Origin: Chloroflexota bacterium
GTDB taxonomy: Bacteria > Chloroflexota > Anaerolineae > UBA2200 > JACIWT01
Assembly (NCBI GenBank): GCA_014360825.1
Contig: JACIWT010000012.1
Location: 72 to 64,071, forward strand
DNA length: 64,000 nt
Direction of reading: 5' to 3'
Below are positions 295 through 28,377 of this stretch, piece after piece. The number at the start of each line of letters is the position of its first letter. Position 1 is the first letter of the stretch. The notes under the pieces are model-generated. The model was given only the letters and a program-made list of their open reading frames with translations. It was not told the origin of the DNA and ran no database searches. A program made the position numbers and the translations under genes.

Positions 295-1497
<1,203 letters not shown>

Positions 1498-1535
1498 CCT
1501 TGTCTCCTCCTATTGAAACGGGCCTAACCTCTTGA

Positions 1536-1611
1536 TGGAGCCCACGATGGGATTTGAACCCATGGCCACGTCCTTACCAAGAACGTGCTCTACCGGCTGA
1601 GCTACGTGGGC
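1536..1611 (-). tRNA. tRNA-Thr (anticodon GGT)
   Basis: 76-nt cloverleaf on the minus strand with encoded CCA end, anticodon loop TT-GGT-AA and T-loop GGTTCAAATCC. 39 nt upstream of tuf, as with thrT-tufB. Confidence 0.85.
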
Positions 1612-1623
1612 AATCACAAAAAA

Positions 1624-1707
1624 GGTGGGCAGGGAAGGATTCGAACCTCCGAAGGCTGAGCCAACTGATTTACAGTCAGTCCCCTTTGGCCACTTGGGTA
1701 CCTGCCC
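1624..1707 (-). tRNA. tRNA-Tyr (anticodon GTA)
   Basis: 84-nt tRNA with a long variable arm, anticodon loop CT-GTA-AA and T-loop GGTTCGAATCC. Confidence 0.8.
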
Positions 1708-1720
1708 TTACAAGCAACGC

Positions 1721-1796
1721 GGAGCCGACGGTGGGACTTGAACCCGCAACCCGCGGTTTACAAAACCGCTGCTCTGCCGCTTTGAGCTACGTCGGC
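1721..1796 (-). tRNA. tRNA-Thr (anticodon TGT)
   Basis: 76-nt cloverleaf with acceptor GCCGACG/CGTCGGC, anticodon loop TT-TGT-AA and T-loop GGTTCAAGTCC. Confidence 0.8.
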
Positions 1797-2068
1797 TTGT
1801 TTTTATTATAACCACAATGGCAAAGCGGTCAAGTCGGCGGGATAGTATAATCTTTTCCCTCGAATTGTCAAATCATCAACGCTGGGAACTGCTAAAGGCT
1901 GATGCAATTTGTGGATTGGCAGCAAATTGACTATCATTGGGTGCGAATGATGGAAAATCGCGGCAAGCACAAATTAGTGGCATTCAAGCATGTGTAAAGA
2001 GAAGTCACATCTCTTGGACCATTGATGGCTAACATGTCCTACACACAACCAAGGAGGTAAAAGGGGGA

Positions 2069-2923
2069 ATGAGCATCAAGAAAGTGGGAGTTGTGGGCTG
2101 CGGACTCATGGGCTCGGGTATCGCTGAAGTTTGTGCTAGGCAAGGCTATAGTGTTGTAGTCCGGGAGGTGAATGAGGAACTCCTGGATAAAGGTCTGAAT
2201 AGCATTCGAAAATCGTTAAGTAAAGCAGTCGAGAGAGGCAAAGTATCTCAGGAAGACGCCAACGCTGCGCAGGCGCGGATCAAAGGGACCACCCATATGG
2301 AGGATTTGGCGGACAGGGATTTGATAATCGAGGCCATCGTCGAGAATATGAGCATGAAGAAAGAGGTTTTCGCCACCCTAGACAGGATTTGCCCGCCTCA
2401 CACCATCTTGGCAAGTAACACCTCATCGCTTTGCATCACGGAGATGGCAGCAGTGACCAAGCGCGGAGATAAAGTCCTTGGCTTGCACTTCTTTAATCCA
2501 GTGCCAGTGATGCCCCTGTTGGAAATCGTACGCACTATTCTGACCAGCGACGAAACCCTGAGCGTTGCTCAGGAGTTTGGAAAATCGCTGGGCAAGACTA
2601 CCATCATAGCCAAGGATACCCCGGGGTTCATCGTGAACCTGCTTCTGGTGCCCTATTTGCTGGATGCTATCCGCGCTTTGGAAAGCGGCATCGCCAGTCG
2701 CGAGGATATTGACAATGCCATGAAACTAGGCTGTGGCCATCCCATGGGCCCCCTAACACTCGCCGATTTCGTGGGTCTGGATACAACCTATTATATCGCC
2801 AACGTAATGTTCGAGGAGTTTAAAGAGCCTCGTTATGCTCCGCCTCCGCTGCTCAAACGTATGGTATTAGCCGGACACTTGGGACGTAAATCGGGCAAGG
2901 GATTCTACGATTACCCCTCATAG
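2069..2923 (+). CDS. hbd: 3-hydroxybutyryl-CoA / 3-hydroxyacyl-CoA dehydrogenase
   Basis: N-terminal Rossmann motif VGVVGCGLMGSGIA and the C-terminal 3HCDH domain. RBS AAGGAGG lies 8 nt upstream. Confidence 0.85.
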   Translation: MSIKKVGVVGCGLMGSGIAEVCARQGYSVVVREVNEELLDKGLNSIRKSLSKAVERGKVSQEDANAAQARIKGTTHMEDLADRDLIIEAIVENMSMKKEVFATLDRICPPHTILASNTSSLCITEMAAVTKRGDKVLGLHFFNPVPVMPLLEIVRTILTSDETLSVAQEFGKSLGKTTIIAKDTPGFIVNLLLVPYLLDAIRALESGIASREDIDNAMKLGCGHPMGPLTLADFVGLDTTYYIANVMFEEFKEPRYAPPPLLKRMVLAGHLGRKSGKGFYDYPS

Positions 2924-3082
2924 ATTAAGGGAGAGTGGCCAGCAAGTGTCACATTCCGACCACTTATAAACGTTAAGGCCGGCGGGATGTGCTGTGCAGA
3001 GTAGGCTAAGGCTTGACCAAGATCAAACCAGCGGCAGGCCAGCACGTCCATTCGGGTTCTCATTAAGAGGGATATCTTACTC

Positions 3083-3577
3083 ATGAAATGGCCATCAGCC
3101 ATCGAGAAAATACGCCGCAACCATGCTCTGGAACATGCCACGATCCACATCTTGAGCCAGCGATGTCCACGTGCTCAACTCATTGGGCACAGTGACGCTG
3201 ACGGATTTGTTATCTACGGTCACGTACCCACGGAGATCGTCGCTGCTACCGCATCCGAAGCGCTGGCACGTTTGCAAGCCGGTGAACGCGATTTAGCCGT
3301 GCACCCACGCTGTGGGACCAATTTGGCAATGGGTGCTCTTCTGACCGGGGCAACCTCATTCCTGGTGATGAAAAGCAGTGCCAAGCGGAAGATGAGTAAC
3401 CTACCCGGTGTGCTGCTGGCAACGACGTTGGCGCTAATGGCGGCACAACCGCTGGGCTTGAAAGTGCAGGAGCTCATTACCACTTCCGCTAACTTGGATA
3501 CGGCACTCATTGCGGACGTGAAGCGCTACATTCTCAGAGGTTTGACAGTTCACCGGGTCTTCGTGCACCACGAGTGA
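3083..3577 (+). CDS. Conserved hypothetical protein (His/Cys-rich, HxxEH motif)
   Basis: 164-aa ORF with no family I can recognise from sequence alone. Contains HALEHATIH and HPRCGTN, which could be metal-binding. Stop overlaps the holA start. Confidence 0.5.
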   Translation: MKWPSAIEKIRRNHALEHATIHILSQRCPRAQLIGHSDADGFVIYGHVPTEIVAATASEALARLQAGERDLAVHPRCGTNLAMGALLTGATSFLVMKSSAKRKMSNLPGVLLATTLALMAAQPLGLKVQELITTSANLDTALIADVKRYILRGLTVHRVFVHHE

Positions 3578-4584
3578 GAGCGATGTTTTATATATTGCAC
3601 GGCGAGGATGAATTCAGCCTCCACGAAGCACTGACCACAATGCGCGCGAAGATGGGTGAGCGCACGCTCGCTGACCTCAACACAACCGTGCTGGATGGCC
3701 GCAAACTTACCTTGACTGAACTGATGAACGCCTGTAATGCCATTCCTTTCGTGGCCAAACGGCGGCTGGTCATTGTGGAGAATTTCGCCTCGCGCCTCGA
3801 AGGGCCTCCACGAGGGCAGGGCAAAGCCAGGGGCGTGAAAGCAAACGATGAACTGCTTCAAGCGCTGAGGGAATATCTCCCCAAAATGCCGGAAACCACG
3901 CGACTGGTCTTCGTAGAGAACCATACTCTAAGCCCCCAGAACCCACTGTTGGAACTGGCCCAGCAAGAAAAAGGCGGGTATGTCAAAACATTTGAGCCAC
4001 CCAAGGGCGATGCGCTCACAAAGTGGATTGTGGAGCGAGTGAGAACAAAGGGCGGGGAGATCGAGGTTGTAGCAGCGACAGAACTAGCAAATTTCGTGGG
4101 TAATGACCTGAGGAAACTGGATCAAGAGTGTGAAAAACTCGTCCTTTATACCGCTGGAGAACGCACCATCACCACGGAAGATGTGTGCCAATTAGTGAGC
4201 CACGTGCAGGCCGCGAGTATCTTTACCCTGGTGGATGCCCTTGGGCATCGCGAGCGCGAACGTGCAATGCAGTTGTTACATGAGCAATTAGACCGGGATG
4301 CCACGCCCCTTTATCTGTTCTCTATGATCGTGCGCCAATTCCGCATCCTCTTACAGGTGAAAGAACTACTGGGTCATGGGCTGTCGCCAGCAGAGATTCG
4401 AGCGAAACTGGGTATTAGCAGCCAGTTTGTGGTAGACAAAGCGGTGGCGCAATCACGACAGTTTTCGATGGAGCGCTTGGAATGCATTTACCAACGCCTG
4501 GTGAACACCGACGCAGACATCAAGACGGGCTGTATGCCGGAGATACTGGCTTTGGATTTGCTTGTGGTAGACCTGTGCCGTTAG
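3574..4584 (+). CDS. holA: DNA polymerase III delta subunit
   Basis: N-terminus YILHGEDEF matches the HolA signature. 336 aa, typical length. Confidence 0.8.
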   Translation: MRAMFYILHGEDEFSLHEALTTMRAKMGERTLADLNTTVLDGRKLTLTELMNACNAIPFVAKRRLVIVENFASRLEGPPRGQGKARGVKANDELLQALREYLPKMPETTRLVFVENHTLSPQNPLLELAQQEKGGYVKTFEPPKGDALTKWIVERVRTKGGEIEVVAATELANFVGNDLRKLDQECEKLVLYTAGERTITTEDVCQLVSHVQAASIFTLVDALGHRERERAMQLLHEQLDRDATPLYLFSMIVRQFRILLQVKELLGHGLSPAEIRAKLGISSQFVVDKAVAQSRQFSMERLECIYQRLVNTDADIKTGCMPEILALDLLVVDLCR

Positions 4585-4642
4585 GGCAACAAATGGATCA
4601 GGCACCACCTCGAGCCTGATCCATTTGTGCGTAGTGAGCGAC

Positions 4643-4936
4643 TTATCTTCTGCGTTGTACTCCGAGCCAGAAATGATGGGGTGGAATATGTGGAACAGCG
4701 AGCACCCTTACCCCATTTTGCTCCAGCGTGTTCCCATTAAGTGTCATCGGGTTCACATAGCAGATGTTCGGCCGTCGACCGAATTTCTGCTCATAGCGCT
4801 GCGCTGCCGCTGTGATCTTAGTCCCCAAGTCGCGGCGCGGATCGTCGTCGAACCAGAGCAACCCTGCCTCCATCGGTGGCGCTCGCTTGCCCAATTCCAA
4901 GGTACCGGATCGATCCGTCAAAGAGGTCAAAGTCAA
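4643..4936 (-). CDS. Hypothetical small protein (WFDDD motif), last gene of the SOS-boxed operon
   Basis: 97-aa ORF. Its start overlaps the stop of the upstream ORF by 4 nt (ATGA), implying translational coupling. Shares a W-F-x-D-D motif with the ORF at 5274-5579. Confidence 0.45.
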   Translation of the reverse strand: MTLTSLTDRSGTLELGKRAPPMEAGLLWFDDDPRRDLGTKITAAAQRYEQKFGRRPNICYVNPMTLNGNTLEQNGVRVLAVPHIPPHHFWLGVQRRR

Positions 4937-5277
4937 TCCTCCCCGATTACCCGGAAATCCCGTGGGGCGCCATGCTCGACCATTGGCGGTATATAGGACG
5001 ACGGGAACATCTCACGCGGCGCCGGTGTTCCCCCTTGGATTACGATCACCGGCGGATATTCTCGCTGCCTGAGGTGGTCTTCCGCGCTCTCTTCCCGGGC
5101 TCGCATCCGGTGCGTCACAACCAGGACTAATACGCTCATCGGGATGGCGGCGATCACTCCACAGGCTACCCCTACTACCACCGCCATAGCCTCCGCGCTC
5201 ATGCGATTCCCTACCACAATGGCCAACGCCACTGCAAATACGACGCCTATCACTGCCACTGTTGCTCTACCGCTCAT
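4933..5277 (-). CDS. Hypothetical small membrane protein (two predicted TM helices)
   Basis: 114-aa ORF with two hydrophobic helices (VAVIGVVFAVALAIVVG and AVVVGVACGVIAAIPMSVLVLVV). ATGA overlaps at both ends. The plus-strand antisense ORF is low-complexity, which favours this strand. Confidence 0.5.
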   Translation of the reverse strand: MSGRATVAVIGVVFAVALAIVVGNRMSAEAMAVVVGVACGVIAAIPMSVLVLVVTHRMRAREESAEDHLRQREYPPVIVIQGGTPAPREMFPSSYIPPMVEHGAPRDFRVIGED

Positions 5278-5579
5278 GGTATCTGTTTCCTCCTGCTCTC
5301 ACACCAAGGACGTGGATCTACACCTTGGCTATCCAGAAGTTTCCCATCTACTCCCAGGGCTACGGCCACGCTCCATAACGCGGCCGCGAAACCCTCCTGA
5401 TAACCCTGTATGAACTCGTCCTCCCGCCTCATAGTCGAAACGCTCGTCCGGCATAACGCTGCCACCGAGCGAAGGATATTTGCGATATCGTCTCGGAACC
5501 AGATGTCTGTGCTCACGGTTTCACCTGCCTTCCGCCGGACGTCAGGCGGTCTCTCACTAATGTCTTCATGGGTAACCAT
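5274..5579 (-). CDS. Hypothetical small protein (WFRDD motif)
   Basis: 101-aa ORF. The annotated start overlaps the FtsK-like stop by about 67 nt, so the true start may be downstream. Weakly similar to the 4643-4936 ORF. Confidence 0.35.
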   Translation of the reverse strand: MVTHEDISERPPDVRRKAGETVSTDIWFRDDIANILRSVAALCRTSVSTMRREDEFIQGYQEGFAAALWSVAVALGVDGKLLDSQGVDPRPWCESRRKQIP

Positions 5580-6610
5580 GGCTTCACATCGCCAGCCACA
5601 GCCTTCCCCATGTTCAAATTGGTCAGTACTTGAGCGATCTCACCCTCCGAAATGAAAGCAGCCTGCAGCCTCGTTACCTGGCCCTTGGCTACTATCAGGA
5701 AATCGCCACGACCCAATAGCCGCTCCGCACCTGTTCCAGCCAGACCCGAGGCGACCTTTGCATCCTCGGGACTCGTGACGCTGCCTACAATACGCACAGG
5801 GAAATTCGATTTGACTAGGGATCCGATCACTGCCACGGTCGGCTTCTGGGTGCAGGCAACAAGATGCAAGCCCGCTTCCCGCCCCCGTTGGGTGAGCCGT
5901 GTGAGTGCTTCTTCCACTTCAGCCCCGCCCACTAAGATGAGGTCGGCGAGTTCATCGATGAAAATGACGACCCGAGGGGAATCAATTCCCATTCGATCGC
6001 GGCGTTCCATCTCGGCCACCAGGCCACGCAAGCGCTCCGGAGCAGCCCAAGGGTCGCGCACCACAGGGAATAACAGGTGGGGCAGATTATCCAAGGGTGC
6101 AAAGCCACGACCTTTGGGATCAAACAGGGCCAACTGCAGTTCTCGTTGGCGGCTGTGAAGGGCCAAGGAAATGATCATAGCCCGAGCGAGAGCGGTTTTG
6201 CCAGAGCCAGTGGTGCCGGCCAGAAGGACGTGTGCCACATCAGGGCTGGTCAGGTTGAGGAGAATGGGCACCCCAGTTTCGTCAAGCCCAAGCACTGGCG
6301 TGCAGGGTGGAACAAAGGCGAGTTGGTCGAGCAACGGAAGCAGGCGAACCGCAGCGGCTTCAACGCGGGGAATCTCCACGTTAAGGGTACCCCCATTGCG
6401 TATGATCCGGCAGGAAGGCACACCGAGGGAAAGAGCGATTTCCTCGGAGAGAGCCTGGATTCGTGCCAGACGAGTGCCTAAGGCAGGGGAAAGATGGTAG
6501 CGAACGAAGCGCGGTGTGACGACCCCTCCCCATACCTGGGTGGGGAGATGGTGGGAGGCCAGGACCATCTCAATCCGGTCGGCTTGGAATTCGAGATCTT
6601 GACGGCGCAT
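5513..6610 (-). CDS. FtsK/SpoIIIE-family DNA-translocase ATPase, truncated (beta/alpha motor only)
   Basis: Walker A LLAGTTGSGKT, Walker B VIFIDELADL, and an N-terminal stretch matching the FtsK beta domain (VTPRFVRYHLSPALGTRL...LNVEIPR). Only 365 aa: no N-terminal TM domain and no C-terminal gamma (KOPS-binding) domain. Confidence 0.8.
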   Translation of the reverse strand: MRRQDLEFQADRIEMVLASHHLPTQVWGGVVTPRFVRYHLSPALGTRLARIQALSEEIALSLGVPSCRIIRNGGTLNVEIPRVEAAAVRLLPLLDQLAFVPPCTPVLGLDETGVPILLNLTSPDVAHVLLAGTTGSGKTALARAMIISLALHSRQRELQLALFDPKGRGFAPLDNLPHLLFPVVRDPWAAPERLRGLVAEMERRDRMGIDSPRVVIFIDELADLILVGGAEVEEALTRLTQRGREAGLHLVACTQKPTVAVIGSLVKSNFPVRIVGSVTSPEDAKVASGLAGTGAERLLGRGDFLIVAKGQVTRLQAAFISEGEIAQVLTNLNMGKAVAGDVKPWLPMKTLVRDRLTSGGRQVKP

Positions 6611-6659
6611 AGTGCTCCTCCTAATTGCAAACGAATTGCGTGTCTCTGGTGGCTGGATA

Positions 6660-6712
6660 GAACAAATGTTCTATTACGGCCCCATTATAGCAGAACATTT
6701 GTTCTTTGTCAA
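6660..6712 (-). promoter_or_regulatory. Consensus sigma-70 promoter (TTGACA-17-TATAAT) with two LexA/Cheo boxes
   Basis: On the minus strand: TTGACA (plus 6707-6712), a 17-nt spacer containing GAACAAATGTTC (plus 6693-6704), TATAAT (plus 6684-6689), then a second box GAACATTTGTTC (plus 6660-6671) at the expected start site. Both boxes fit GAACN4GTTC. The FtsK-like ATG is at 6610. Confidence 0.7.
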
Positions 6713-6768
6713 GTGGAGCATGTTGAGTGCATTGAAGCGTTTGTAGACGTTGCATAGCTTGTGGTACA

Positions 6769-8076
6769 ATGGCGGTAAGTGCTTGGGCAGTGCACGACCA
6801 TATTTTAGGTTGTCGATTCTGGGTAGGCTGTTTTCAGGGGTCTGCATTGGAAATCTATTCTGTCAGTTACATTACGCGTTACATCCGCGAACTCTTTGAG
6901 GTGGATTTCACTCTCCAGGATATCTGGATAAGAGGTGAGGTTTCCAACCTGACACAGGCGCCCTCTGGACACGTCTATTTCACTCTGAAAGATGAGGCCG
7001 CGCAAATTCGCTGCGTTCTCTGGCGATCACAAGCGGCGCGCCTCACCCAGTTGCCTCGCGATGGCGATGGTGTTGTGGCCCACGGGCGCGTCAGCGTTTA
7101 CGAAGCCCAGGGAGTTTACCAATTCTACGTAGATATGGTGCAACCAGTCGGAGTGGGGTTGCTGTATCTCCAATTCGAGGCTCTTCGAAAAAAGTTAGAA
7201 TCCGAAGGACTGTTTGCACCGGAGCGAAAGCGCCCGCTACCACCCTATCCACAGCGCATTGGTGTGATAACATCACCCATCGGTGCGGCCATCCGTGATA
7301 TCCTGCATGTGCTGAGACGGCGCTACCCCATTGCTGAAGTCATCTTGGCCCCAACTTTAGTGCAAGGTGACGAAGCCCCACCACAGATTGTGGCAGCGCT
7401 CCGCGCTTTGAACGACTACCCCGACATAGAAGTGATCATTTTGGCCCGGGGAGGCGGATCCATAGAGGAATTGTGGGCATTTAATGATGAACGGGTGGCG
7501 CGAGCCATCGCCGCGTCACAGATCCCGGTGGTCACAGGAATCGGACACGAGACGGATTTCACCATCGCCGACTTCGTGGCAGACTTGCGTGCGCCAACTC
7601 CCACCGCCGCAGCAGAGATGGTTGCGCCCGAGCGCACATTAATGCTAGAGACCATCACGCGGTATGGTCAGCGCTTGGAACATCTGATGGAACAGCGAGT
7701 GCGAGAAGGCGAATTGCGCTTGGGCACACTGCGAGCGAGACTAGGGCGTGCCTCGCCCCAGGCGATACTGGAGGGATATGCGCAGCGCCTGGACGACATA
7801 ACACGGACGATGATGTCCATGATGGAACACGGCCTGAGCCTGCGCCAAGAGCGGTTGGCTGGCCGAGCGGCGCAACTCCAGAGCTTGGACCCGCAACATA
7901 TCTTGGAGCGCGGCTATGCAGTTGTATCGCGGACCGACTCGGGAGAGGTTGTACGCCGACGCGGTCAGGTTGCATCTGGGGATGGTATCCAGGTGCGAGT
8001 AAGCGATGGACACTTCAGAGCCACCGTGGACAGCAAAGAGAGTGAGCGAGGTCAAAAACAAGATGGGGAACTATAA
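6769..8076 (+). CDS. xseA: Exodeoxyribonuclease VII large subunit
   Basis: OB-fold N-terminus (VSYITRYIRELFE...IWIRGEVSN) and the ExoVII catalytic region. The annotated ATG overlaps a TACAAT -10-like hexamer, so the real start may be TTG at 6847, which has a GGGG RBS. Confidence 0.8.
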   Translation: MAVSAWAVHDHILGCRFWVGCFQGSALEIYSVSYITRYIRELFEVDFTLQDIWIRGEVSNLTQAPSGHVYFTLKDEAAQIRCVLWRSQAARLTQLPRDGDGVVAHGRVSVYEAQGVYQFYVDMVQPVGVGLLYLQFEALRKKLESEGLFAPERKRPLPPYPQRIGVITSPIGAAIRDILHVLRRRYPIAEVILAPTLVQGDEAPPQIVAALRALNDYPDIEVIILARGGGSIEELWAFNDERVARAIAASQIPVVTGIGHETDFTIADFVADLRAPTPTAAAEMVAPERTLMLETITRYGQRLEHLMEQRVREGELRLGTLRARLGRASPQAILEGYAQRLDDITRTMMSMMEHGLSLRQERLAGRAAQLQSLDPQHILERGYAVVSRTDSGEVVRRRGQVASGDGIQVRVSDGHFRATVDSKESERGQKQDGEL

Positions 8077-13169: not shown

Positions 13170-14018
13170 TTAATCCAACCTCTGGAGTACACCCCGGATG
13201 AGCGCAGACAATCGGATAGCGAGTTGCTTCCCTGCCTCTAGAACTTCTTCGTGGGTCAGTTTGCCGCCGCCATTGATGACGTTGCTGATACCCGAGATGC
13301 CTAACACGCACATCCCCATATGGCGAGCCACAGTGACCTCGTTAACTGTGGACATACCCACTGCATCTGCTCCAATCAAGCGCAAGAAACGAATGTCAGC
13401 AGGGGTTTCGAAACTGGGTCCCCCTAACATGATGTATATTCCTTGATGGAGAACGATGCCTTTGCTTTTGGCAACCTCGACGGCAAGACGCTGGAGTTCG
13501 GGGTCATAGGCTTGCGACATATCGGGGAAGCGGGGACCTAGTTGGGGGTCATTGGGACCGCGAAGGGGATTCAACCCCGCCATGCCAATTAAATTGATGT
13601 GGTCAGTAATAAGCATCAAATCGCCAGCATTGAACCGGTAGTTCAATCCCCCAGCAGCATTGGTAACAATCAGGGTTTTCACGCCCAGGAAGTGCATTAC
13701 TCGAATGGGGAACGTAGTCTGTTGCATCGAATAGCCCTCATAAAAGTGGGCTCGACCGCGCATAACAAGCACTTCCTTTTCTTCCAGTTTGCCAATCACT
13801 AGGTCGCCAGGGTGTCCCTCCACAGTCGCAACTGGAAAATGCGGGATCTGATGGTAGGGGATGATATCTGGGTCCTGTACTTCCTCTGCCAGTCCTGCCA
13901 AGCCAGAGCCAAGGATGATGCCCACAGTAGGGTGATATGTAATCCGCGCGCGTAGGAAGTCCGTCGCTTCTTGGTACTCTGCCCGGGAGGGCGATTGAAG
14001 TATCACGTCCGCATTCAT
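13170..14018 (-). CDS. Purine nucleoside phosphorylase (PNP/MTAP family)
   Basis: PNP-I family motifs GIILGSGLAGLAE, VMRGRAHFYEG and LGGPSFETPAD. Confidence 0.8.
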   Translation of the reverse strand: MNADVILQSPSRAEYQEATDFLRARITYHPTVGIILGSGLAGLAEEVQDPDIIPYHQIPHFPVATVEGHPGDLVIGKLEEKEVLVMRGRAHFYEGYSMQQTTFPIRVMHFLGVKTLIVTNAAGGLNYRFNAGDLMLITDHINLIGMAGLNPLRGPNDPQLGPRFPDMSQAYDPELQRLAVEVAKSKGIVLHQGIYIMLGGPSFETPADIRFLRLIGADAVGMSTVNEVTVARHMGMCVLGISGISNVINGGGKLTHEEVLEAGKQLAIRLSALIRGVLQRLD

Positions 14019-14932
14019 CCCTTGGCCCGGGGGTGCGCCTCATTGTAAACTTCTCGCAAGCGCTCGCTGCTCACTTGGGTGTAGACCTGGGTTGTGGCAA
14101 TGTTTGCGTGGCCGAGGAGTTCTTGAACGTTTCGCAGATCCGCGCCCCCGCTGAGCATATGTGTGGCAAACGAATGGCGCAGGGTATGAGGAGTTACCGG
14201 CGCGGTGATGCCAGCCTCTTGAACGTAGTTCTTAACAATGAGCCATAGTCCCTGGCGGGTCAGGCGTTGACCTCGCTGGTTAAGAAAGATAGCCCTTTCA
14301 TCGGGGTCCCTGAGCAAACGGATGCGTCCACGTTCCATGTATTCTTCTAAGGCTCTTGCCGCTCGGTCGTGGATTGGAATAACGCGTTCCTTGTTTCCCT
14401 TGCCGAAGCAGCGCACGCTGGCGGAAGCCAAATCCACATCTCCTACATTGAGGGCCACCAATTCGCTCACGCGCATCCCCGTGGCATAGAGCAGTTCCAA
14501 AATGGCTTTGTCGCGCAGGCCAGCGGCGGTTTTATCTTGGTTGGGAGCATCGAGTAGTCTCTCGATATCCTGAATAGAGATCGCCTTGGGAAGATACTTT
14601 TTCACCCGCGGGGAATCCAAGGTTGCCGTTGGGTCCTCTTGGATTTGCCCCTCCGTGTTCAGGAAATGGAAGAAAGACTTGATGGCCGCCACCTTGCGGG
14701 CTACAGTGGACGAAGCGTACTCGCGTTCGCTCTTGAGATACAAAATGTATTCCATCAAATGGTCTTTGCTTATCTGCGCCCAAGCATTGACACCGGGTTC
14801 GCCCCTGCGCTGGATCCAGCGCAAGAACTGGCTGAGGTCATTTTTATAGGCCACACGGGTATTCTCTGAATACCCCTTTTCTACCTTCAGAGAGGCGAGG
14901 AAACTATCCACTTGCTCCTGCATGATACGCAC
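14015..14932 (-). CDS. xerD: Tyrosine recombinase XerC/XerD
   Basis: N-terminal SAM-like domain (FLASLKVEKGYSENTRVAY) and a C-terminal catalytic domain with the R...HxxR...Y pattern (LRHSFATHML...TQVYTQV). 305 aa. Confidence 0.8.
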   Translation of the reverse strand: MRIMQEQVDSFLASLKVEKGYSENTRVAYKNDLSQFLRWIQRRGEPGVNAWAQISKDHLMEYILYLKSEREYASSTVARKVAAIKSFFHFLNTEGQIQEDPTATLDSPRVKKYLPKAISIQDIERLLDAPNQDKTAAGLRDKAILELLYATGMRVSELVALNVGDVDLASASVRCFGKGNKERVIPIHDRAARALEEYMERGRIRLLRDPDERAIFLNQRGQRLTRQGLWLIVKNYVQEAGITAPVTPHTLRHSFATHMLSGGADLRNVQELLGHANIATTQVYTQVSSERLREVYNEAHPRAKG

Positions 14933-15154: not shown

Positions 15155-15197
15155 TTGCTAAACTGGCATTCTTCGTGTATAATTAGAACAAAATTTC
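15155..15197 (+). promoter_or_regulatory. recA promoter (TTGCTA-17-TATAAT) with an adjacent SOS-box-like GAACAAAATTTC
   Basis: -35 at 15155-15160 and -10 at 15178-15183. Box at 15186-15197 has one mismatch to GAACN4GTTC and sits over the predicted start site. Confidence 0.55.
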
Positions 15198-15323
15198 TAA
15201 TGATGAAATTTGCAAGTTGGTGCTGACGTATTTTCCAATCCTGAGGGCTTGCTTTTTCGCTGTTATTGTAGTAAACTATTAGTAGGATCGCCTCGCTAAG
15301 TGAGGGGTGGAAGGAGATGAGCC

Positions 15324-16460
15324 ATGGGCGCCACAGAAGGTAAGGATAAGGCACTGGAGACGACATTGGCCCACTTACGAAAACGCTATGGTGACGGTGT
15401 AATTATGAAACTGGGCGAGTCTACCAGCCTGGACGCAGAGGCGATACCAACCGGTTCGATCTCATTAGACATTGCCCTGGGTATCGGAGGCGTCCCCAGA
15501 GGTCGGGTTACCGAAATCTACGGCCCCGAATCCTCGGGCAAGACGACGTTGGCCCAGCATATCATCGCCGAGGCACAGAAGGCGGGAGGGGTCGCAGCGT
15601 TTATCGATGTTGAACACGCCCTGGATCCTGGATATGCCGCTAAATGCGGTGTGGACGTAGATAATTTGTACATCTCCCAGCCAGACACAGGGGAACAGGC
15701 CCTAGAAATTGCCGAAGCCTTAGTGCGTAGCGGTGCAGTGGATGTAATCGTCATTGATTCTGTAGCTGCTCTCGTTCCGCGAGCGGAGATCGAGGGCGAA
15801 ATGGGCGATTCACACATGGGTCTGCAGGCCCGCCTGATGTCCCAAGCGCTGCGCAAACTGGTCGGAGCGATCAAGCGTTCTAACACCGCGGTGATTTTCA
15901 CCAATCAACTTCGCCAGAAAATCGGCGTTGTGTTCGGCAACCCCGAGACTACCACTGGGGGCAACGCGCTGAAGTTCTACGCTGCAGTCCGCTTAGATAT
16001 GCGCCGCATGGAGGGCATCAAGCAAGGTGGTGATGTAATAGGTAATCGCACGAAAGTGCGAGTAAAAAAGAACAAACTGGCCCCGCCCTTTAAATCTGCC
16101 GAGTTCGATATCATGTATGATGAGGGCATTTCCCGCGAGGGTGATGTGCTGGATGTGGCCACGGAATTGGGCATCGTCGAAAAGCGGGGCGCTCATTATG
16201 CCTTCGGCGAGGTCCGTTTAGGTCAAGGGCGGGAAAACGTGAGGCTCTTCCTCAAAGAGAATCCCGACATCACCGATGAAATTGAGGCGAAGATACGCGC
16301 AACCGTGGGGCTTCCGCCCAAAGGCGAAAGCGGCCCTGCGCGAGTCTCCGCAGCGCTTGGCAAATTGCCGAAGGCCGAAATCAGCGATGAGGGCGAGCCT
16401 CTTGCCGAAGAGGGGTTATCTTACGAGGACGATTTCGAGGACGAAAATACCGATCTCTAG
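15324..16460 (+). CDS. recA: Recombinase A
   Basis: [13 protein letters not shown] Walker A and full-length RecA homology. GGAAGGAG RBS. Confidence 0.97.
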
Positions 16461-16975: not shown

Positions 16976-17626
16976 ATGCCGAAAGTCACAGCCCTGAAGA
17001 GGCAAAAAAAGAATGCTCACCGGGTGAATGTGTATTTAGATGGGGAATATGCCTTTGCTCTTCAGGATATTGTGGCCATATCACTGAAAGTGGGGCAGGA
17101 GTTATCGCCCAACGACATTCTTACCTTGAAAACACAGGATGTTTTTCAGCGCGAGTACGATCGCGTTCTGCATTACCTGAGTTACCGCCCGCGTAGCGTA
17201 CGCGAAGTGCGGCAATACCTTGCTGACAGGGATGTGGAAAGCGGCATTGCAGATAACATCGTAACTCGACTACAGCGGGCTGGCCTATTAGACGATGCAG
17301 CATTTGCTCGATCCTGGGTAGAGAGCCGAGATTCGCTCAGACCTCGAGGCCGCTACCTATTGGCCCGAGAGCTGCGCCAGAAGGGTGTACCTGATGAAAT
17401 CATCCAAGAGGCTTTGCAATCCGTGGAGGAGGAGAGGAGCGCCTACAGAGCAGGGGTAAACCGTGTGGGTGCACTGCAGGGGATGGATTATCCAACCTTT
17501 CGGCGACGGTTGGGCGATTTCCTGCACCGCCGAGGCTTTGGCTACGAAATCATCCGGGAAACCGTGCAGCGCCTCTGGCAAGAAATGCAGGAGGGCAAAC
17601 TCGGCTTACAATCCAAACACTCCTAG
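16976..17626 (+). CDS. recX: RecA regulator RecX
   Basis: 216 aa with RecX helical repeats (VNVYLDGEYAFAL...). Lies downstream of recA. Confidence 0.75.
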   Translation: MPKVTALKRQKKNAHRVNVYLDGEYAFALQDIVAISLKVGQELSPNDILTLKTQDVFQREYDRVLHYLSYRPRSVREVRQYLADRDVESGIADNIVTRLQRAGLLDDAAFARSWVESRDSLRPRGRYLLARELRQKGVPDEIIQEALQSVEEERSAYRAGVNRVGALQGMDYPTFRRRLGDFLHRRGFGYEIIRETVQRLWQEMQEGKLGLQSKHS

Positions 17627-22368: not shown

Positions 22369-22608
22369 TACGAAACCGATTTGTGTTAATTTTAGCCCAC
22401 CCTCTATCTCGTGCCAAATGGTTCTGCCCTACCAGGACGCCAGAGCGAAGTCATTTCTTCGGGGTTCGTAGGGACTTAGATTCCTGAGAGGACGCTGCCA
22501 CCTACACGACCACGAAGTTCTATGATTTCTCATGTTACAGAAACCTTTTGCCAGATCTGGCGTCGTTATGATAAGATTGTCATAAGCGAACTGCCTTGGA
22601 GGCTAGAT

Positions 22609-25600
22609 ATGGGTAGCCAAAAGACATCTGCTGAGAGATTGCTAAACTTGCTGGTCATCGCATCTCTGGTTATTACCACAGCGGGGTTCGTGCCCCTTCG
22701 TGTCGCGGCCGGAACGCAAGTAAATCAACCCGCTGCCGATCAAACCATCTCCGCGGTGGCCTCTGCCTCCGCCAGGGCCACATCACTGTCTCCATCCATG
22801 CTGCCAAAATCTCAAGGCGATCTTGCTGTCTTCCCTAGTACACCCGCTCCAACCCCCGCACCGACATCAGAGCCCATGCTCACTCCGCCGCCGGCAGACG
22901 AGGCCTATATCACCCCTGAAGGTGGCGGAGTGTTACAATCGGCGAACGGCCGCATTCGCCTGGAGTTCCCGCCCGGTGCAGTGCGCGAGCCGGCGACCGT
23001 CCGGTACGTCGAAGTCCTGGCCCAGCCGTTCACGCTCTCTACCGACACCCTGCTGAGGTTCAACCTGGAAGTGGTGGGAGGCGCCCAACCCACCGATGCG
23101 CGAGGCCACGCCCTGTTCGATCAGCCCTTGACACTGACCATCAATCTGGAGGGACTGGTGGCGGCGCAGCCCCTGTTGGCGCAGAACAAGCGCCTGGAGT
23201 TCGCCTACGTCTCAGAACGCTACGGCGAGAGGGCCACCTTGGTGGCGGTCCCTCTGACCAGTGTGGATTGGGAACGGGGACAGGTGGTCGTCGTGTTCGA
23301 CCACTTTTCAGAGTGGGAGTTGATGGCTGCTGACCAACTCCCGCCGACCGACTGGATGTTCCCCACCAACCTGGGTGCGGCCGTGGACCCCTTCACCGGC
23401 TCGGCAGCGTACAACTACTCGATCGAAGTGGTGCCGGGCATCCAAGGCCTGCAGCCACAGTTAACCCTCTCCTACAGCAGTCGAACCGTGGACAACCTGC
23501 TGACCAACATCCAAGCCCCGTGGGTCGGTCTGGGCTGGTCGCTGGAGACCGTCGAGGTGGTGCGCAAGATCACTACCCACCGGGGCAGCCAGGGCATGGT
23601 CTACGGTTACGAAAACACATTCACGTTGATCTTCCAGGGGCGCTCGCAGCGCCTGGTGCGCGAGCCAGGCAGCCCGCCGGCAGGCAAACCGGCGGTATAC
23701 CATGCTGAGAGCGAGGATTTCTTGCGCATCGAGCGTTACAACGCCCAGCACGGTGGCCAAAGCCCATCCAACACCTGTGGCGAGTATTGGGTGATCACGG
23801 CCCGCGATGGGACGGTGTACCGCCTGGGCTATAATGCCGACTCCGAGCAGGTGGCCAGCATGCAAGACTACAACCCCAACAACCCACCGGCGGCAGGGTA
23901 TGCCGGGTCGGCCACCAACCGGGTGGCATATCGCTGGCGGCTGGATCGGGTGACGGACACCCACGCTAACTACATGACCATCTCCTACTCTGAGGAGCAG
24001 AAACAAGATCCGGTGGTCACCGGCAACCCCACCTACGACCACGCCAGTTATCTGAATGAGATACTGTACACGGGACACAACCCCGGCTTCTCACCGCCTC
24101 ACAAGGTGCAGTTCGAGCGCGAGGGTCGCACCTTCGACACGAATACACCCGTCTCCTGGCTGGGTTATGAAGGTTCTCCGAACAGTAAACCCTACGCCTT
24201 GTTTGAATCCCAGCGTCTGAAGCGTATCAAGATCTACAAAGACACCACCCTGGTGCGCAAGTACGAACTCGGCTATACCTACATCGAGCATGGCAACCGC
24301 AAGAACACCTTGTTGCAAACCATCACCCAATATGGGTTGAGCGGGTTGTCTCTGCCGACAGTGACTCTGACTTACCAGGGCTATGAGAACCGGAACCCTG
24401 GCGGCGAAGGCGACTGGTTCGTTTACGACCGGCTGATTACGGTTACCAACGGCTATGGCGGGAGTGTCGGGTTCAGTTACGCCTACTTCGGGCATTGCGA
24501 GTTCGGCTGTGGACGCTACTACCGCGTCTCGGAGATGCGCACCCTGAATGGCCAGGGTAACACGGCCAAGGTGCAATACACCTACCAGACCCCAACGTGG
24601 AACAACTTTGCCCCAGACGATTATGACACTTTCTGGGGCCATGACGTGGCGACGGAAACCGTCTTGGCCTATAACCTGACCACGCTTTCCCAAACTATCT
24701 ACGACTTCAACGTGGCTACCATCGAACGGAGGGGGCGCCCCGAGAGCGTCAAGGTAAAAGACAGTAGCGGGGCAGTGAGGCAGACGACAACCTACACTTA
24801 CTACCAGGAGTACACCGTATCACCGCAATCTGACCAGTACTGGCGTTTCGCCGCTTTCGTAGCCCCCAGCGAAGTGGTAGTCTATCCGAACGATGGGTCC
24901 TCGGTGTACAAGAAGACCAAGCACTACTATGAAGCCAGTTCGCAAGGTGGGAAACAGTACGGCAATCTGACCCAACTGGAAGAGTACAGCGGCACCGTCG
25001 CAGTGCGTAAGACGTGGTGGCGCTTTTACCCCGATGCAGATTACTGGATCATCAACAAGCCTGGCTTCACCAACGTCTACACCTGGACGGGCAGCACCTG
25101 GCTGTGGGAGTCCTCGACACAGTATTGCTACGACGATAGTTGGTACTATGCCAACCCCATTGGCTCCACCAACTACGGCGGCAACGGCAGTCACAAGGGC
25201 GAGTTGACCCTGGTGCGCCGCAACACCGGCGAGACCTATTCGCAGGGCGGCCGCACCTATTACAAGATGGTGGACACCGTCTATGATTACGACGTCTATG
25301 GCAACCAGATCAATATCATAGAGTACAACTCCTACGGCAGCCTCTCCGATGGCACACCCCCGCTGGGTGCGGTGGCCAGCCAGAACCCCCGCCCCATTAC
25401 CATCACCTATGAGAGCACCTACCACACTTACCCCAGTCAGGTGACCAATGCCAAAGGCCACACGGCCACTTATATCCATAACGCTGGTTTTGGCACCCTG
25501 ACACATGTAACCGACCCGAACAACGACGAGGTAGACTATGAGTACGACGAATTCGGCCGGCTGAAGAAGGTATGGCGCCCCGGCGACGACAAAGACCTGG

Positions 25601-28377
25601 GCCATGCCGCCACCTCCGAGTACACCTACACCGACAGTTACCCCTTCCGCGTCTATGTGAAACAGCGCGATGACCTGGGTGGGGGCGGTACGGCCACTTA
25701 TTATGAGACCTGGTCCTTCTACAACGGCCTGGGGCAGTTGATCCAGACCCAGAAAGAGGCGGTGGGCGGGATCATTGTGGCCGACACGGCCTACGACTCC
25801 CGTGGGCTGACGGAGAAGATCGGCCTGCCCCGCGCCAGCACCGGGGGCGGCAGTTACAAGACGCCCAATTGGACCGGCGCCACCACCAACCAATACGATT
25901 GCCTGGGCCGGCTTACTCTGGTAACCTATCCCGATGGCCGCACCGTCTCACGCAGTTACACCAACTGGACCACAGCGGTCATTGATGAAAACAGCCACAA
26001 GAAAGAGTTCGAGAACGATGCCCTGGGCCGGCTGATCCGTGTGCGCGAGTATACCGGCACCAACCCGTACACCCTATACGCCACCACCATTTACGCCTAC
26101 AACAGCCTGGATCAGTTGATCCATCTCTGGGATAACGCCAGTAACCACACCGGGATCACCTATAACAAACTGGGGCAAAAGACAGCCATGGGCGACCCCG
26201 ACATGGGCAACTGGGCCTATGCTTACGACCCCATCGGCACGCTGGCCAGCCAGAGCGACGCCAAGGGCCAGACCATCGCCTTCTTCTACGACGAACTGAA
26301 TCGCCTCCTGCGCAAGGAATACCCCGCGGGCACAGTCCTGGCCAGCTTCACTTACGATGACACGACGGGAGGTAACAAGGGCAGGGGCCGGCGGACGGGG
26401 ATGAGTTATAGCGGAGGCGGCTCGGCCTCCTATATCTATGACGGCCGGGGTCGCCTGACCAAAGAGACCGACGTCATCCCGGGCCCGGGAGGCGGCACTT
26501 TCGTCACCCAGTGGACCTACAACGATATGGATCGGGTGCGGACAACGGTGTATCCAGGTGGAAACGGCGGGCAGACTGGAGAGACGGTAACTTTCACCTA
26601 CGGAGCCGATAGTTGGCTGAAGAGCGCGGTTGGCACCAACACTTACGTGGGCGACACCACCTACAACGCGCTGGGGCAAGTGGAACTGAGAAAACTGGGT
26701 AGCGCCGCCACCCCTGTGCTGACCACCGACTACATCTATCGCACAGACAATTTCCGTTTGCAATGGATCAAGACCGGCCAGAGCAGCCCCTTCGAGGGGT
26801 TGCAGAAACTGGAGTACACCTACGATGCGGCGGGGAACGTCCTGACCATCAAAGACTACAACGCCGGCGGCACCCAGACCCAGAGTTTCGTTTACGACGC
26901 GCTGGACCGGGTGACCACGGCTACCGCGAGCGGGGGGACGGGGGGCCTCTACAGCGAGGGGTACACCTACAACCCCATCGGCAACCTGCTGAGCAAAGGC
27001 GGGGTGAACTACACCTATGGCTCCAGCAAGCCCCATGCGGTGACCGCGGCTGGTTCTAACTCCTACGCCTACGACGCCAACGGCAACACGATCACGCGCA
27101 CAGTGGGCAGCGACACCTACGCCCTGACGTACGACGCAGAGAACCGCCTGACGCAGGTGAAGAAGAACGGGGGCGCCATCGCCGCCTTCGTCTACGACGG
27201 CGACGGGGTGCGGGTGAAGGCCATGGTCAACGGCACGACCACCGCCTACATTGGGGACTACTACGAGCAGACGGGGAGCACCATCCGCAAATACTACTAC
27301 GCCAATGGCCAGCGGGTGGCCATGCAGGAGAACAGCACCCTCTACTGGCTCTTGACGGACCACCTGGGCTCCACCGCCATCACCGCCAACTCGAGCGGCA
27401 GCAAGTACGGCGAGTTGCGCTACAGGGCCTATGGCGAGACCCGCTACACCTGGGGCACCACGCCCACCACCTATCGCTTTACCGGCCAGCGGGAAGAGAG
27501 TACAATAGGGCTGTACTTTTACAATGCCAGATGGTATGACCCGGCCTTGGGGCGATTTGTGCAGGCGGATACCCTCGTGCCGGAGCCGGGGAACCCGCAG
27601 GCGCTCAACCGCTACTCGTACGTGCTGAACAATCCGCTGCGGTATACGGATCCCACTGGTCTCTTCTCAGAGGAAGAGATTATGAAGCACCTAGAGGTGG
27701 ATACCTGGGAGGAAGTGCTGGCCTTCTTCAGAGCCGGAGGATTGCTGGCGGGAAGGTGGGGTTGGCTCGCAGTTCTGCGCCAAGCGCAGTTGGGAGATGA
27801 GGTCCAGTTCCTGGAGGGCTATGCTGGCTTCTGGCCTGCGCCGGGACCTGGGGGAAGGGTTGCCTCGCGCGGCATTTTCGTGGAATCGAATGGTTCGCTC
27901 TACATCCGGGGCGCTGAAGGCGGCCTGATAGCGGCAAATGAGGCAGCGAAGGTGGGTAATGCCTATCTGCTGGCCAGGCCGTCGTCGGACTATAGGTTGC
28001 CGATGGTGTTCGGGCCGTACTATGCTGAAAGAATGTACCCGCATCATTACCAACTTGACCCGGGAAGGGTGGATTGGGTTGGGGCTGGTCTTGATGCTGG
28101 AGGAATTGCTGCCGACGCGCTCACCTATGGAGCAGGGGGCAGGCTTGTTAATGTAGCCGAAATCGCTGTAGCTGGCAGACAGATTGGAGATGCTCTCGAT
28201 GTAGTGAGCTTGGTGAGGAGTGGATACCCGTTTGCGAGGGGGACTCTGAGGGGAGGGCTCTCTTACGCTCAAGTCAGAGACTTCTCTCTGGATACAGCCG
28301 CACTTTGGATTCCGTTTGTGCCTGATTTCGTGAGTCTGGTGGCGAATTTCCGTGAGGCTTCCTATCCAGTGCCTTAG
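22609..28377 (+). CDS. Rhs/YD-repeat polymorphic toxin with C-terminal toxin domain CT1
   Basis: About 1920 aa. Signal/TM N-terminus, dozens of YD repeats and the Rhs core ending at PxxxxDPxGL (NPLRYTDPTGL, D at 27649). A unique ~238-aa C-terminal domain follows. Start set at the ATG with a GGAGG RBS (track ORF begins at 22522). Confidence 0.9.
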   Translation: MGSQKTSAERLLNLLVIASLVITTAGFVPLRVAAGTQVNQPAADQTISAVASASARATSLSPSMLPKSQGDLAVFPSTPAPTPAPTSEPMLTPPPADEAYITPEGGGVLQSANGRIRLEFPPGAVREPATVRYVEVLAQPFTLSTDTLLRFNLEVVGGAQPTDARGHALFDQPLTLTINLEGLVAAQPLLAQNKRLEFAYVSERYGERATLVAVPLTSVDWERGQVVVVFDHFSEWELMAADQLPPTDWMFPTNLGAAVDPFTGSAAYNYSIEVVPGIQGLQPQLTLSYSSRTVDNLLTNIQAPWVGLGWSLETVEVVRKITTHRGSQGMVYGYENTFTLIFQGRSQRLVREPGSPPAGKPAVYHAESEDFLRIERYNAQHGGQSPSNTCGEYWVITARDGTVYRLGYNADSEQVASMQDYNPNNPPAAGYAGSATNRVAYRWRLDRVTDTHANYMTISYSEEQKQDPVVTGNPTYDHASYLNEILYTGHNPGFSPPHKVQFEREGRTFDTNTPVSWLGYEGSPNSKPYALFESQRLKRIKIYKDTTLVRKYELGYTYIEHGNRKNTLLQTITQYGLSGLSLPTVTLTYQGYENRNPGGEGDWFVYDRLITVTNGYGGSVGFSYAYFGHCEFGCGRYYRVSEMRTLNGQGNTAKVQYTYQTPTWNNFAPDDYDTFWGHDVATETVLAYNLTTLSQTIYDFNVATIERRGRPESVKVKDSSGAVRQTTTYTYYQEYTVSPQSDQYWRFAAFVAPSEVVVYPNDGSSVYKKTKHYYEASSQGGKQYGNLTQLEEYSGTVAVRKTWWRFYPDADYWIINKPGFTNVYTWTGSTWLWESSTQYCYDDSWYYANPIGSTNYGGNGSHKGELTLVRRNTGETYSQGGRTYYKMVDTVYDYDVYGNQINIIEYNSYGSLSDGTPPLGAVASQNPRPITITYESTYHTYPSQVTNAKGHTATYIHNAGFGTLTHVTDPNNDEVDYEYDEFGRLKKVWRPGDDKDLGHAATSEYTYTDSYPFRVYVKQRDDLGGGGTATYYETWSFYNGLGQLIQTQKEAVGGIIVADTAYDSRGLTEKIGLPRASTGGGSYKTPNWTGATTNQYDCLGRLTLVTYPDGRTVSRSYTNWTTAVIDENSHKKEFENDALGRLIRVREYTGTNPYTLYATTIYAYNSLDQLIHLWDNASNHTGITYNKLGQKTAMGDPDMGNWAYAYDPIGTLASQSDAKGQTIAFFYDELNRLLRKEYPAGTVLASFTYDDTTGGNKGRGRRTGMSYSGGGSASYIYDGRGRLTKETDVIPGPGGGTFVTQWTYNDMDRVRTTVYPGGNGGQTGETVTFTYGADSWLKSAVGTNTYVGDTTYNALGQVELRKLGSAATPVLTTDYIYRTDNFRLQWIKTGQSSPFEGLQKLEYTYDAAGNVLTIKDYNAGGTQTQSFVYDALDRVTTATASGGTGGLYSEGYTYNPIGNLLSKGGVNYTYGSSKPHAVTAAGSNSYAYDANGNTITRTVGSDTYALTYDAENRLTQVKKNGGAIAAFVYDGDGVRVKAMVNGTTTAYIGDYYEQTGSTIRKYYYANGQRVAMQENSTLYWLLTDHLGSTAITANSSGSKYGELRYRAYGETRYTWGTTPTTYRFTGQREESTIGLYFYNARWYDPALGRFVQADTLVPEPGNPQALNRYSYVLNNPLRYTDPTGLFSEEEIMKHLEVDTWEEVLAFFRAGGLLAGRWGWLAVLRQAQLGDEVQFLEGYAGFWPAPGPGGRVASRGIFVESNGSLYIRGAEGGLIAANEAAKVGNAYLLARPSSDYRLPMVFGPYYAERMYPHHYQLDPGRVDWVGAGLDAGGIAADALTYGAGGRLVNVAEIAVAGRQIGDALDVVSLVRSGYPFARGTLRGGLSYAQVRDFSLDTAALWIPFVPDFVSLVANFREASYPVP

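Follow-up and report, generated by a model that had tools for sequence, protein, structure and literature searches.

In a stretch of 64,000 nucleotides (nt) from a Chloroflexota bacterium of the class Anaerolineae (assembly GCA_014360825.1, contig JACIWT010000012.1, positions 72 to 64,071 of the forward strand; in the following called the window) we found a chromosomal promoter of the sigma-70 type that is very probably an SOS promoter repressed by LexA, and that is predicted to drive a four-gene operon headed by the gene of a short FtsK-like ATPase. Read on the minus strand, the promoter-operator region has the sequence cTTGACAaAGAACAAATGTTCTgcTATAATggggccgtaaTAGAACATTTGTTCTAtcc, which from 6712 to 6658 can be divided into TTGACA-aAGAACAAATGTTCTgc-TATAAT-ggggccgtaa-TAGAACATTTGTTCTA, i.e. 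a promoter with one LexA box in its spacer and a second one downstream of the -10 hexamer (Table 1). We favour this assignment, which an earlier sequence-only reading of the window had put forward as a LexA-repressed and strongly inducible SOS promoter, because the boxes are rare in the window, score highly with an independently built matrix, have a counterpart at the recA promoter, belong to a module that is conserved in 60 of 80 related loci and are linked to lexA in most relatives; together, these observations lend the prediction strong comparative support.

Table 1. Coordinates of the promoter elements, genes and repeats discussed in the text (aa, amino acids; bp, base pairs)
Feature	Position in window	Strand	Remarks
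-35 hexamer TTGACA	6707..6712	-	Direct read; exact
LexA box 1, AGAACAAATGTTCT	6692..6705	-	Exact match; fills the 17-nt spacer
-10 hexamer TATAAT	6684..6689	-	Direct read; TGnTATAAT, extended -10
LexA box 2, TAGAACATTTGTTCTA	6658..6673	-	Exact match; perfect 16-bp palindrome, 10 nt past the -10
Predicted 67-nt leader	6611..6677	-	Start at about 6677 inferred from the position of the -10
Shine-Dalgarno AGGAGG	6622-6617	-	6 nt ahead of the ftsK-like ATG
ftsK-like ATPase, 365 aa	5513..6610	-	Alpha and beta motor domains only
orfB, 80 aa	5274..5516	-	GTG start overlaps the ftsK-like stop (GTGA)
orfC, 114 aa	4933..5277	-	ATGA overlap with orfB; predicted membrane protein
orfD, 76 aa	4643..4873	-	Start fixed by homologue alignment; conserved GLLWFDDD...HHFWLG
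13-bp perfect inverted repeat	4590..4627	.	CAAATGGATCAGG, 12-nt loop, CCTGATCCATTTG; between the convergent orfD and holA stops
xseA	6769 or 6847 to 8076	+	Divergent from the operon
recA LexA box, TAGAACAAAATTTCTA	15184..15199	+	Directly past the recA -10; predicted target of the same repressor
recA	15324-16460	+	Pfam 4.8e-135
recX	16976-17626	+	Downstream of recA

A consensus promoter with two LexA-type operators

The promoter is predicted by its agreement with the consensus. Allowing for up to one mismatch, the pattern TTGACA-N17-TATAAT matches the 64 kb only once, and this single match is exact, just as the sequence-only reading had stated; 0.07 matches would be expected by chance, and only 6 of 100 shuffled sequences contained any. 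In a promoter scan the site reaches the full score (12/12), with a TG ahead of the -10 hexamer that is formed by the 3' end of box 1 (6692-6691). Both boxes are palindromic GAAC-N4-GTTC operators of the LexA type. Exactly two GAACN4GTTC sites are present in the window, both of them at the ftsK-like promoter, and the longer form AGAACN4GTTCT is likewise found exactly twice (0.07 expected; none of 100 shuffles reached two). Separated by 19 nt, the two 14-mer boxes are perfectly reverse-complementary, which bears out the centre-to-centre distance of 33 bp that had been claimed. The claimed position of box 1 inside the spacer also stands, but that of box 2 at +1 has to be corrected: with transcription starting at about 6677, some 7 nt past the -10 hexamer, box 2 would extend from about +4 to +19. 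With one box inside the spacer and the other one past the -10, the operators would thus overlap the predicted promoter. A weight matrix for LexA boxes, built from 60 other loci only and with the window sites left out, ranked box 2 (27.6 bits) and box 1 (21.8 bits) first and second in the window, the maximum in 20 shuffled sequences being 16.3 bits.

The third-best matrix score of the window (12.3 bits) belongs to a box at the recA promoter, our internal control, where TTGCTA-17-TATAAT is directly followed by the only site in the window that matches AGAACN4GTTCT with one mismatch (15155-15199, plus strand). The motif therefore also occurs at core SOS genes, namely at recA in the window and at lexA promoters in relatives. 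In Firmicutes and Actinobacteria LexA recognises GAAC-N4-GTTC, variants of this motif have been reported from Chloroflexi, and SOS genes under tight control often have LexA sites in tandem (PMC4951493). Our region resembles the 'Cheo boxes' of Firmicutes and Actinobacteria and the LexA site of Dehalococcoides in that the same palindrome overlaps the promoter, with tandem sites at tightly regulated genes; however, the tandem sites described in that work are 1-10 bp apart, whereas here a spacer box and a box past the -10 face each other in mirror orientation at a distance of 33 bp (PMC4951493).

From this arrangement a simple mode of regulation can be proposed. In the undamaged cell, a LexA dimer bound to box 1 would fill the space between the -35 and -10 hexamers and exclude RNA polymerase, and a second dimer on box 2, just past the start, would block initiation or escape. 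Upon DNA damage, RecA filaments would trigger the self-cleavage of LexA and both operators would be vacated; the perfect -35 hexamer, the 17-nt spacer and the extended -10 should then allow strong firing of the freed promoter, yielding one coupled mRNA of four genes. Since both boxes are far nearer to the consensus than the recA box, the operon is probably among the SOS functions that are repressed most tightly and induced latest, and would be derepressed only after heavy damage.

Conservation of the module and its linkage to lexA

For comparison we fetched 80 related loci (779 kb in total) and determined their gene content by tblastn. Short FtsK proteins of this family occur widely in Chloroflexota. 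The relatives listed share about 57-70% identity with the window protein, one further sequence reaching 98%, and those that carry a name belong mostly to Anaerolineae. The operon is preceded by the same module of TTGACA, box, TATAAT and box in 60 of the 80 loci. Within the resulting 61 modules (these 60 and the window), TTGACA is exact in 53 and TATAAT in 48; 47 have a spacer of 17 nt, 13 one of 18 nt, and 46 an extended TG. The core of box 1 begins 2-3 nt past the -35 hexamer in all modules but one (60/61), and the second box follows 1-15 nt past the -10 in 61 of 61. The 779 kb contain 169 exact GAACN4GTTC sites, where base composition would predict 9.4; 161 of these sites are found no more than 2.6 kb upstream of the ftsK-like gene. 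The remaining 20 loci comprise 12 with one exact box, 3 with two boxes of one mismatch each, 3 with only weaker one-mismatch sites, and 2 with little upstream sequence and no box in that sequence. Downstream of the ftsK-like gene, orfC is found in 66 of the 80 loci and orfD in 41, and a convergent pair of holA and a DUF6391 gene follows in 14-16 divergent loci. A sister contig (L081) differs from the window by a few substitutions, all of them outside the hexamers and boxes; being 99% identical, it is uninformative for footprinting. In several cases, two copies of the ftsK-like cassette were observed on different contigs of single metagenome-assembled genomes (L015/L019, L017/L029, L031/L039, L037/L042, L041/L048, L049/L054 and L056/L062), and the copies differ in how lexA and an open reading frame (ORF) for a Cys-rich protein are arranged.

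The strongest argument for reading the operators as LexA sites is that the cassette is tied to lexA in relatives. Of the 80 loci, 50 have a lexA homologue that points in the same direction as the ftsK-like gene and is located no more than 3 kb upstream of it, either adjoining the operon or inside it. The commonest gene order, represented by locus L010, is lexA1, dual-box module, lexA2, the Cys-rich ORF (143 aa), ftsK-like gene, orfC and orfD; both lexA1 and lexA2 of this locus pass the cut-off of the LexA equivalog model TIGR00498, and the lexA1 promoter, TTGACAtAGAACGTATGTTCgtgTATAAT, has one box within its spacer. Exact boxes upstream of lexA are found in many other loci as well. The gene directly behind the module is the Cys-rich ORF in some loci and, like in the window, the ftsK-like gene in others, so the window reads as the short version of a cassette that is tied to lexA elsewhere.

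The same linkage raises the question which repressor is served. As a second lexA copy stands under the dual-box promoter in many loci, the module could primarily be the autoregulatory site of that copy, and the operators would then belong to a LexA paralogue (lexA2) with its own small regulon, for which the induction rules might differ, rather than to the general SOS LexA. One clade (L006-L015, L026) lends some weight to this idea: in its in-operon copy, IAAS(A/E)EP takes the place of the canonical cleavage motif IAAG found in the upstream copy. However, we consider a dedicated paralogue unlikely: the same motif is present at the upstream canonical lexA of L010 and at recA of the window, neither of the two lexA copies fails the equivalog model, and the operon of the window does without lexA2. 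The in-operon copies of this clade keep the catalytic GDSM and LKR motifs, and their self-cleavage may be altered.

Several observations weigh against a LexA-controlled SOS operon in the window, or at least against parts of this assignment. No lexA gene was found in the 64-kb window, so the repressor of this genome itself is not seen. The score of the recA box, taken on its own, falls inside the range of the shuffled sequences mentioned above. The distance between the boxes varies from 22 to 36 bp among the relatives (mode 28 bp), which argues against a conserved cooperative contact of two dimers or a fixed face of the helix, and is still compatible with independent binding. Finally, as regards the roles of the products, orfB, orfC and orfD are without a family match, and orfD is also without a structural neighbour.

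The operator pair as an inverted repeat

In the related loci, the two boxes are mirror images at a frequency that the LexA consensus alone would not demand. In 24 of 59 non-redundant modules, with 11 different central sequences among them, the variable four-base centres of box 1 and box 2 are exactly reverse-complementary to each other; 10,000 shuffles gave 4.6 such modules on average and never more than 12. Among 51 distinct modules we counted 54 double-sided changes, concentrated in the central columns, versus 23.4 +/- 4.9 in the shuffles, none of which (0/500) reached the observed number. A run of T follows the module in 20 of the 26 perfectly complementary cases but in only 4 of the 19 poorly complementary ones, and a co-oriented ORF ends at most 250 nt upstream in 52 of the 61 modules. 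In L010 (4700-4765), L019 (4822-4890) and L045 (2770-2835) the pair can fold into a hairpin of 17-20 bp with -28 to -35 kcal/mol (z -8 to -10), which is followed by a U-run and trails the co-oriented upstream ORF; this ORF is lexA in L010 and L019. The operator pair of many relatives thus resembles an intrinsic terminator that could serve the upstream gene and would hold the -10 hexamer in its loop. Shared ancestry or the correction of quasipalindromes could also account for the covariation.

In the window the boxes form a perfect 14-bp stem (-18.7 kcal/mol) without a T-run after box 2, and the upstream gene is divergent. A terminator role does not apply here because both the U-run and a co-oriented upstream gene are lacking. 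We further searched positions 4400-7100 against Rfam; the sole hit, which with 27.6 bits stays below the gathering threshold of 70, was to a microRNA precursor model, and we regard it as a chance match due to the hairpin shape.

One might still suppose that the inverted repeat is mainly a hairpin of the nucleic acid, e.g. a terminator or a cruciform, and that its likeness to LexA boxes is secondary. The perfect complementarity of the boxes, the covarying central bases and the stable, U-run-flanked folds of the relatives all fit such a structure. We nevertheless regard it as very unlikely to be the primary function, as the invariant GAAC/GTTC cores, the fixed register to the -35 and -10 hexamers and the linkage to lexA need a protein operator. 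Moreover, box 1 precedes the predicted start and is thus outside the operon's own RNA, and the missing T-run and co-oriented gene in the window speak against the hairpin as well. At best, the hairpin could have an additional function in the relatives.

The operon, its neighbourhood and its possible function

Judged from its sequence, the first gene of the operon encodes a motor-only relative of FtsK. The protein matches the Pfam families FtsK_SpoIIIE (PF01580, 2.7e-32) and FtsK_alpha (PF17854, 3.8e-10) as well as the solved motor of Pseudomonas FtsK (PDB 2IUU, 5e-50), and its Walker A (GTTGSGKT) and Walker B (DELAD) motifs are invariant in the alignment of relatives. A match to the gamma domain was not found in the Pfam search, and the hydropathy profile contains no transmembrane segment, the sole hydrophobic stretch being the Walker B strand. 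With 155.6 bits, the protein remains far below the cut-off of the canonical FtsK equivalog model (1566 bits); it would accordingly lack both the membrane part and the gamma domain of a canonical FtsK. A full-length FtsK is not encoded within the 64-kb window.

The four genes are predicted to form one translationally coupled operon under the LexA-box promoter; we assume a coupled mRNA because of the GTGA and ATGA overlaps of stop and start codons. Homologues of orfB occur in only about 8-12 loci, and the conserved residues begin past the overlap with the ftsK-like gene. The orfC product has two hydrophobic helices (hydropathy peaks 2.76 and 2.57). Considered against SOS division inhibitors, i.e. 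small membrane proteins such as YneA, SidA and ChiZ, it is a protein with two such helices encoded in a LexA-box operon, and it shows no homology to a named family. For the three small proteins and the Cys-rich protein of the relatives, searches of Pfam, NCBIfam, PADLOC and PHROGs yielded nothing above threshold. The inverted repeat between the orfD and holA stops is likely a shared terminator that marks the end of the operon; it has no clear T-run, and its terminator role is inferred.

On the other side of the promoter lies xseA, which is indeed divergent from the operon as the sequence-only reading had it. The further suggestion that xseA shares the control region found no support: it adjoins the operon only in the window and in the sister contig, and this neighbourhood is absent from all 80 other loci. 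The long xseA ORF, which starts with ATG 6769, probably over-extends the gene; the Pfam OB-fold begins at residue 30 of this form, and a start at TTG 6847, behind an AGGGG, agrees better with the N-terminus that XseA usually has. The gene caller used the long form on the sister contig, too. The best -10 candidate for xseA that we could find by eye is TGgTACAAT at 6762-6770. Box 1 would then be centred near -79 and not at a repressing position for xseA, because a repressor bound there would not be expected to occlude RNA polymerase. If ATG 6769 is used, the xseA promoter would have to lie within 6713-6768 and thus nearer to box 1, and some influence is possible.

Elsewhere in the window, a gene for a tyrosine recombinase of the XerC/XerD type (14015-14932, minus strand; Phage_integrase and SAM-like N-terminal domains) is divergent from recA, and the ORF list contains an open reading frame of 1951 aa at 22522-28377 (plus strand).

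An origin of the operon as cargo of a mobile element or prophage, with an FtsK-like DNA-transfer ATPase and palindromes for the element's repressor, is the least probable of the explanations considered: although the motor matches the phage FtsK/SpoIIIE-like family phrog_1358 (1.7e-50) and has relatives of 48-56% identity on six IMG/VR contigs, one of them (L082) beside two DNA methylases and a helix-turn-helix (winged-helix) protein, these viral relatives have no GAACN4GTTC near the gene, the small ORFs match neither PHROGs nor PADLOC, the neighbours in the window are housekeeping genes (holA, DUF6391, xseAB, tuf, recA), the GC content of the operon region (0.50-0.60) is within the range of the first 14 kb, and the convergent holA-DUF6391 synteny recurs in divergent loci. 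For the window, we rejected this origin on context and synteny. On these predicted viral contigs, the region concerned in L082 is 500-7000, the other five contigs are L083-L087, and an orfC-like match is present in L082, L084 and L086.

Turning back to a chromosomal SOS operon, we compared it with known systems. Compared to LexA targets of the Gram-positive type, the set of genes regulated here is not one described for the SOS response. The lexA2-imuA-imuB-dnaE2 cassettes of Proteobacteria and Verrucomicrobia are similar in that a second lexA heads a multi-gene cassette behind tandem sites, as is the case in our relatives (PMC4951493). Here, however, the cargo consists of the Cys-rich protein, the FtsK-like motor and small proteins without polymerase genes, and the window has no lexA copy; in place of imuA, imuB and dnaE2, the FtsK-like motor and unassigned small ORFs were found behind the module. 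FtsK-like motors outside the canonical divisome are also known from Streptomyces, where TraB works with small membrane proteins (Spd), and from Bacillus subtilis (SftA). The TraB model matches our protein only weakly (26.5 bits; cut-off 800), and neither the sequence nor the context yielded evidence that ties the operon to conjugation.

As our best guess, the operon provides a DNA translocase that is induced by damage, is perhaps anchored at the membrane through the orfC product and would help to clear or segregate damaged chromosomes; we propose this by analogy because E. coli ftsK offers a precedent, being SOS-induced from the dinH promoter (PMC4080785). The two systems differ in their make-up: E. 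coli FtsK is full-length and essential for division, has membrane and gamma domains and is preceded by a CTGT-N8-ACAG box, whereas the operon described here would consist of the gene of a 365-aa motor and three small genes transcribed together with it, under the control of two operators.

Combining these lines, one may tentatively go further, although we would not yet bet on it. The module could unite a promoter, two LexA operators and a terminator hairpin, with the operators as arms and the -10 in the loop, and thereby insulate and separately control tandem lexA genes within about 60 bp; at the same time, the operon could represent an Anaerolineae-wide, so far undescribed SOS cassette, in which a motor-only FtsK pump and a small membrane partner serve damage-induced chromosome clearance or the movement of DNA between filamentous cells. 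The promoter motif and its logic are textbook; what is new are the LexA-linked short-FtsK cassette and the covarying inverted-repeat boxes. Our literature search found nothing on a LexA regulon of Anaerolineae and no description of a lexA-linked, motor-only FtsK cassette.

The SOS network of Chloroflexota is known mainly from one study of Dehalococcoides (as cited in PMC4951493), and the operon adds a well-supported predicted target to the LexA regulon of this phylum. The operator pair that covaries as a hairpin hints at a compact regulatory design, and the cassette would link DNA damage with chromosome handling in filamentous Chloroflexota in a form that can be tested.
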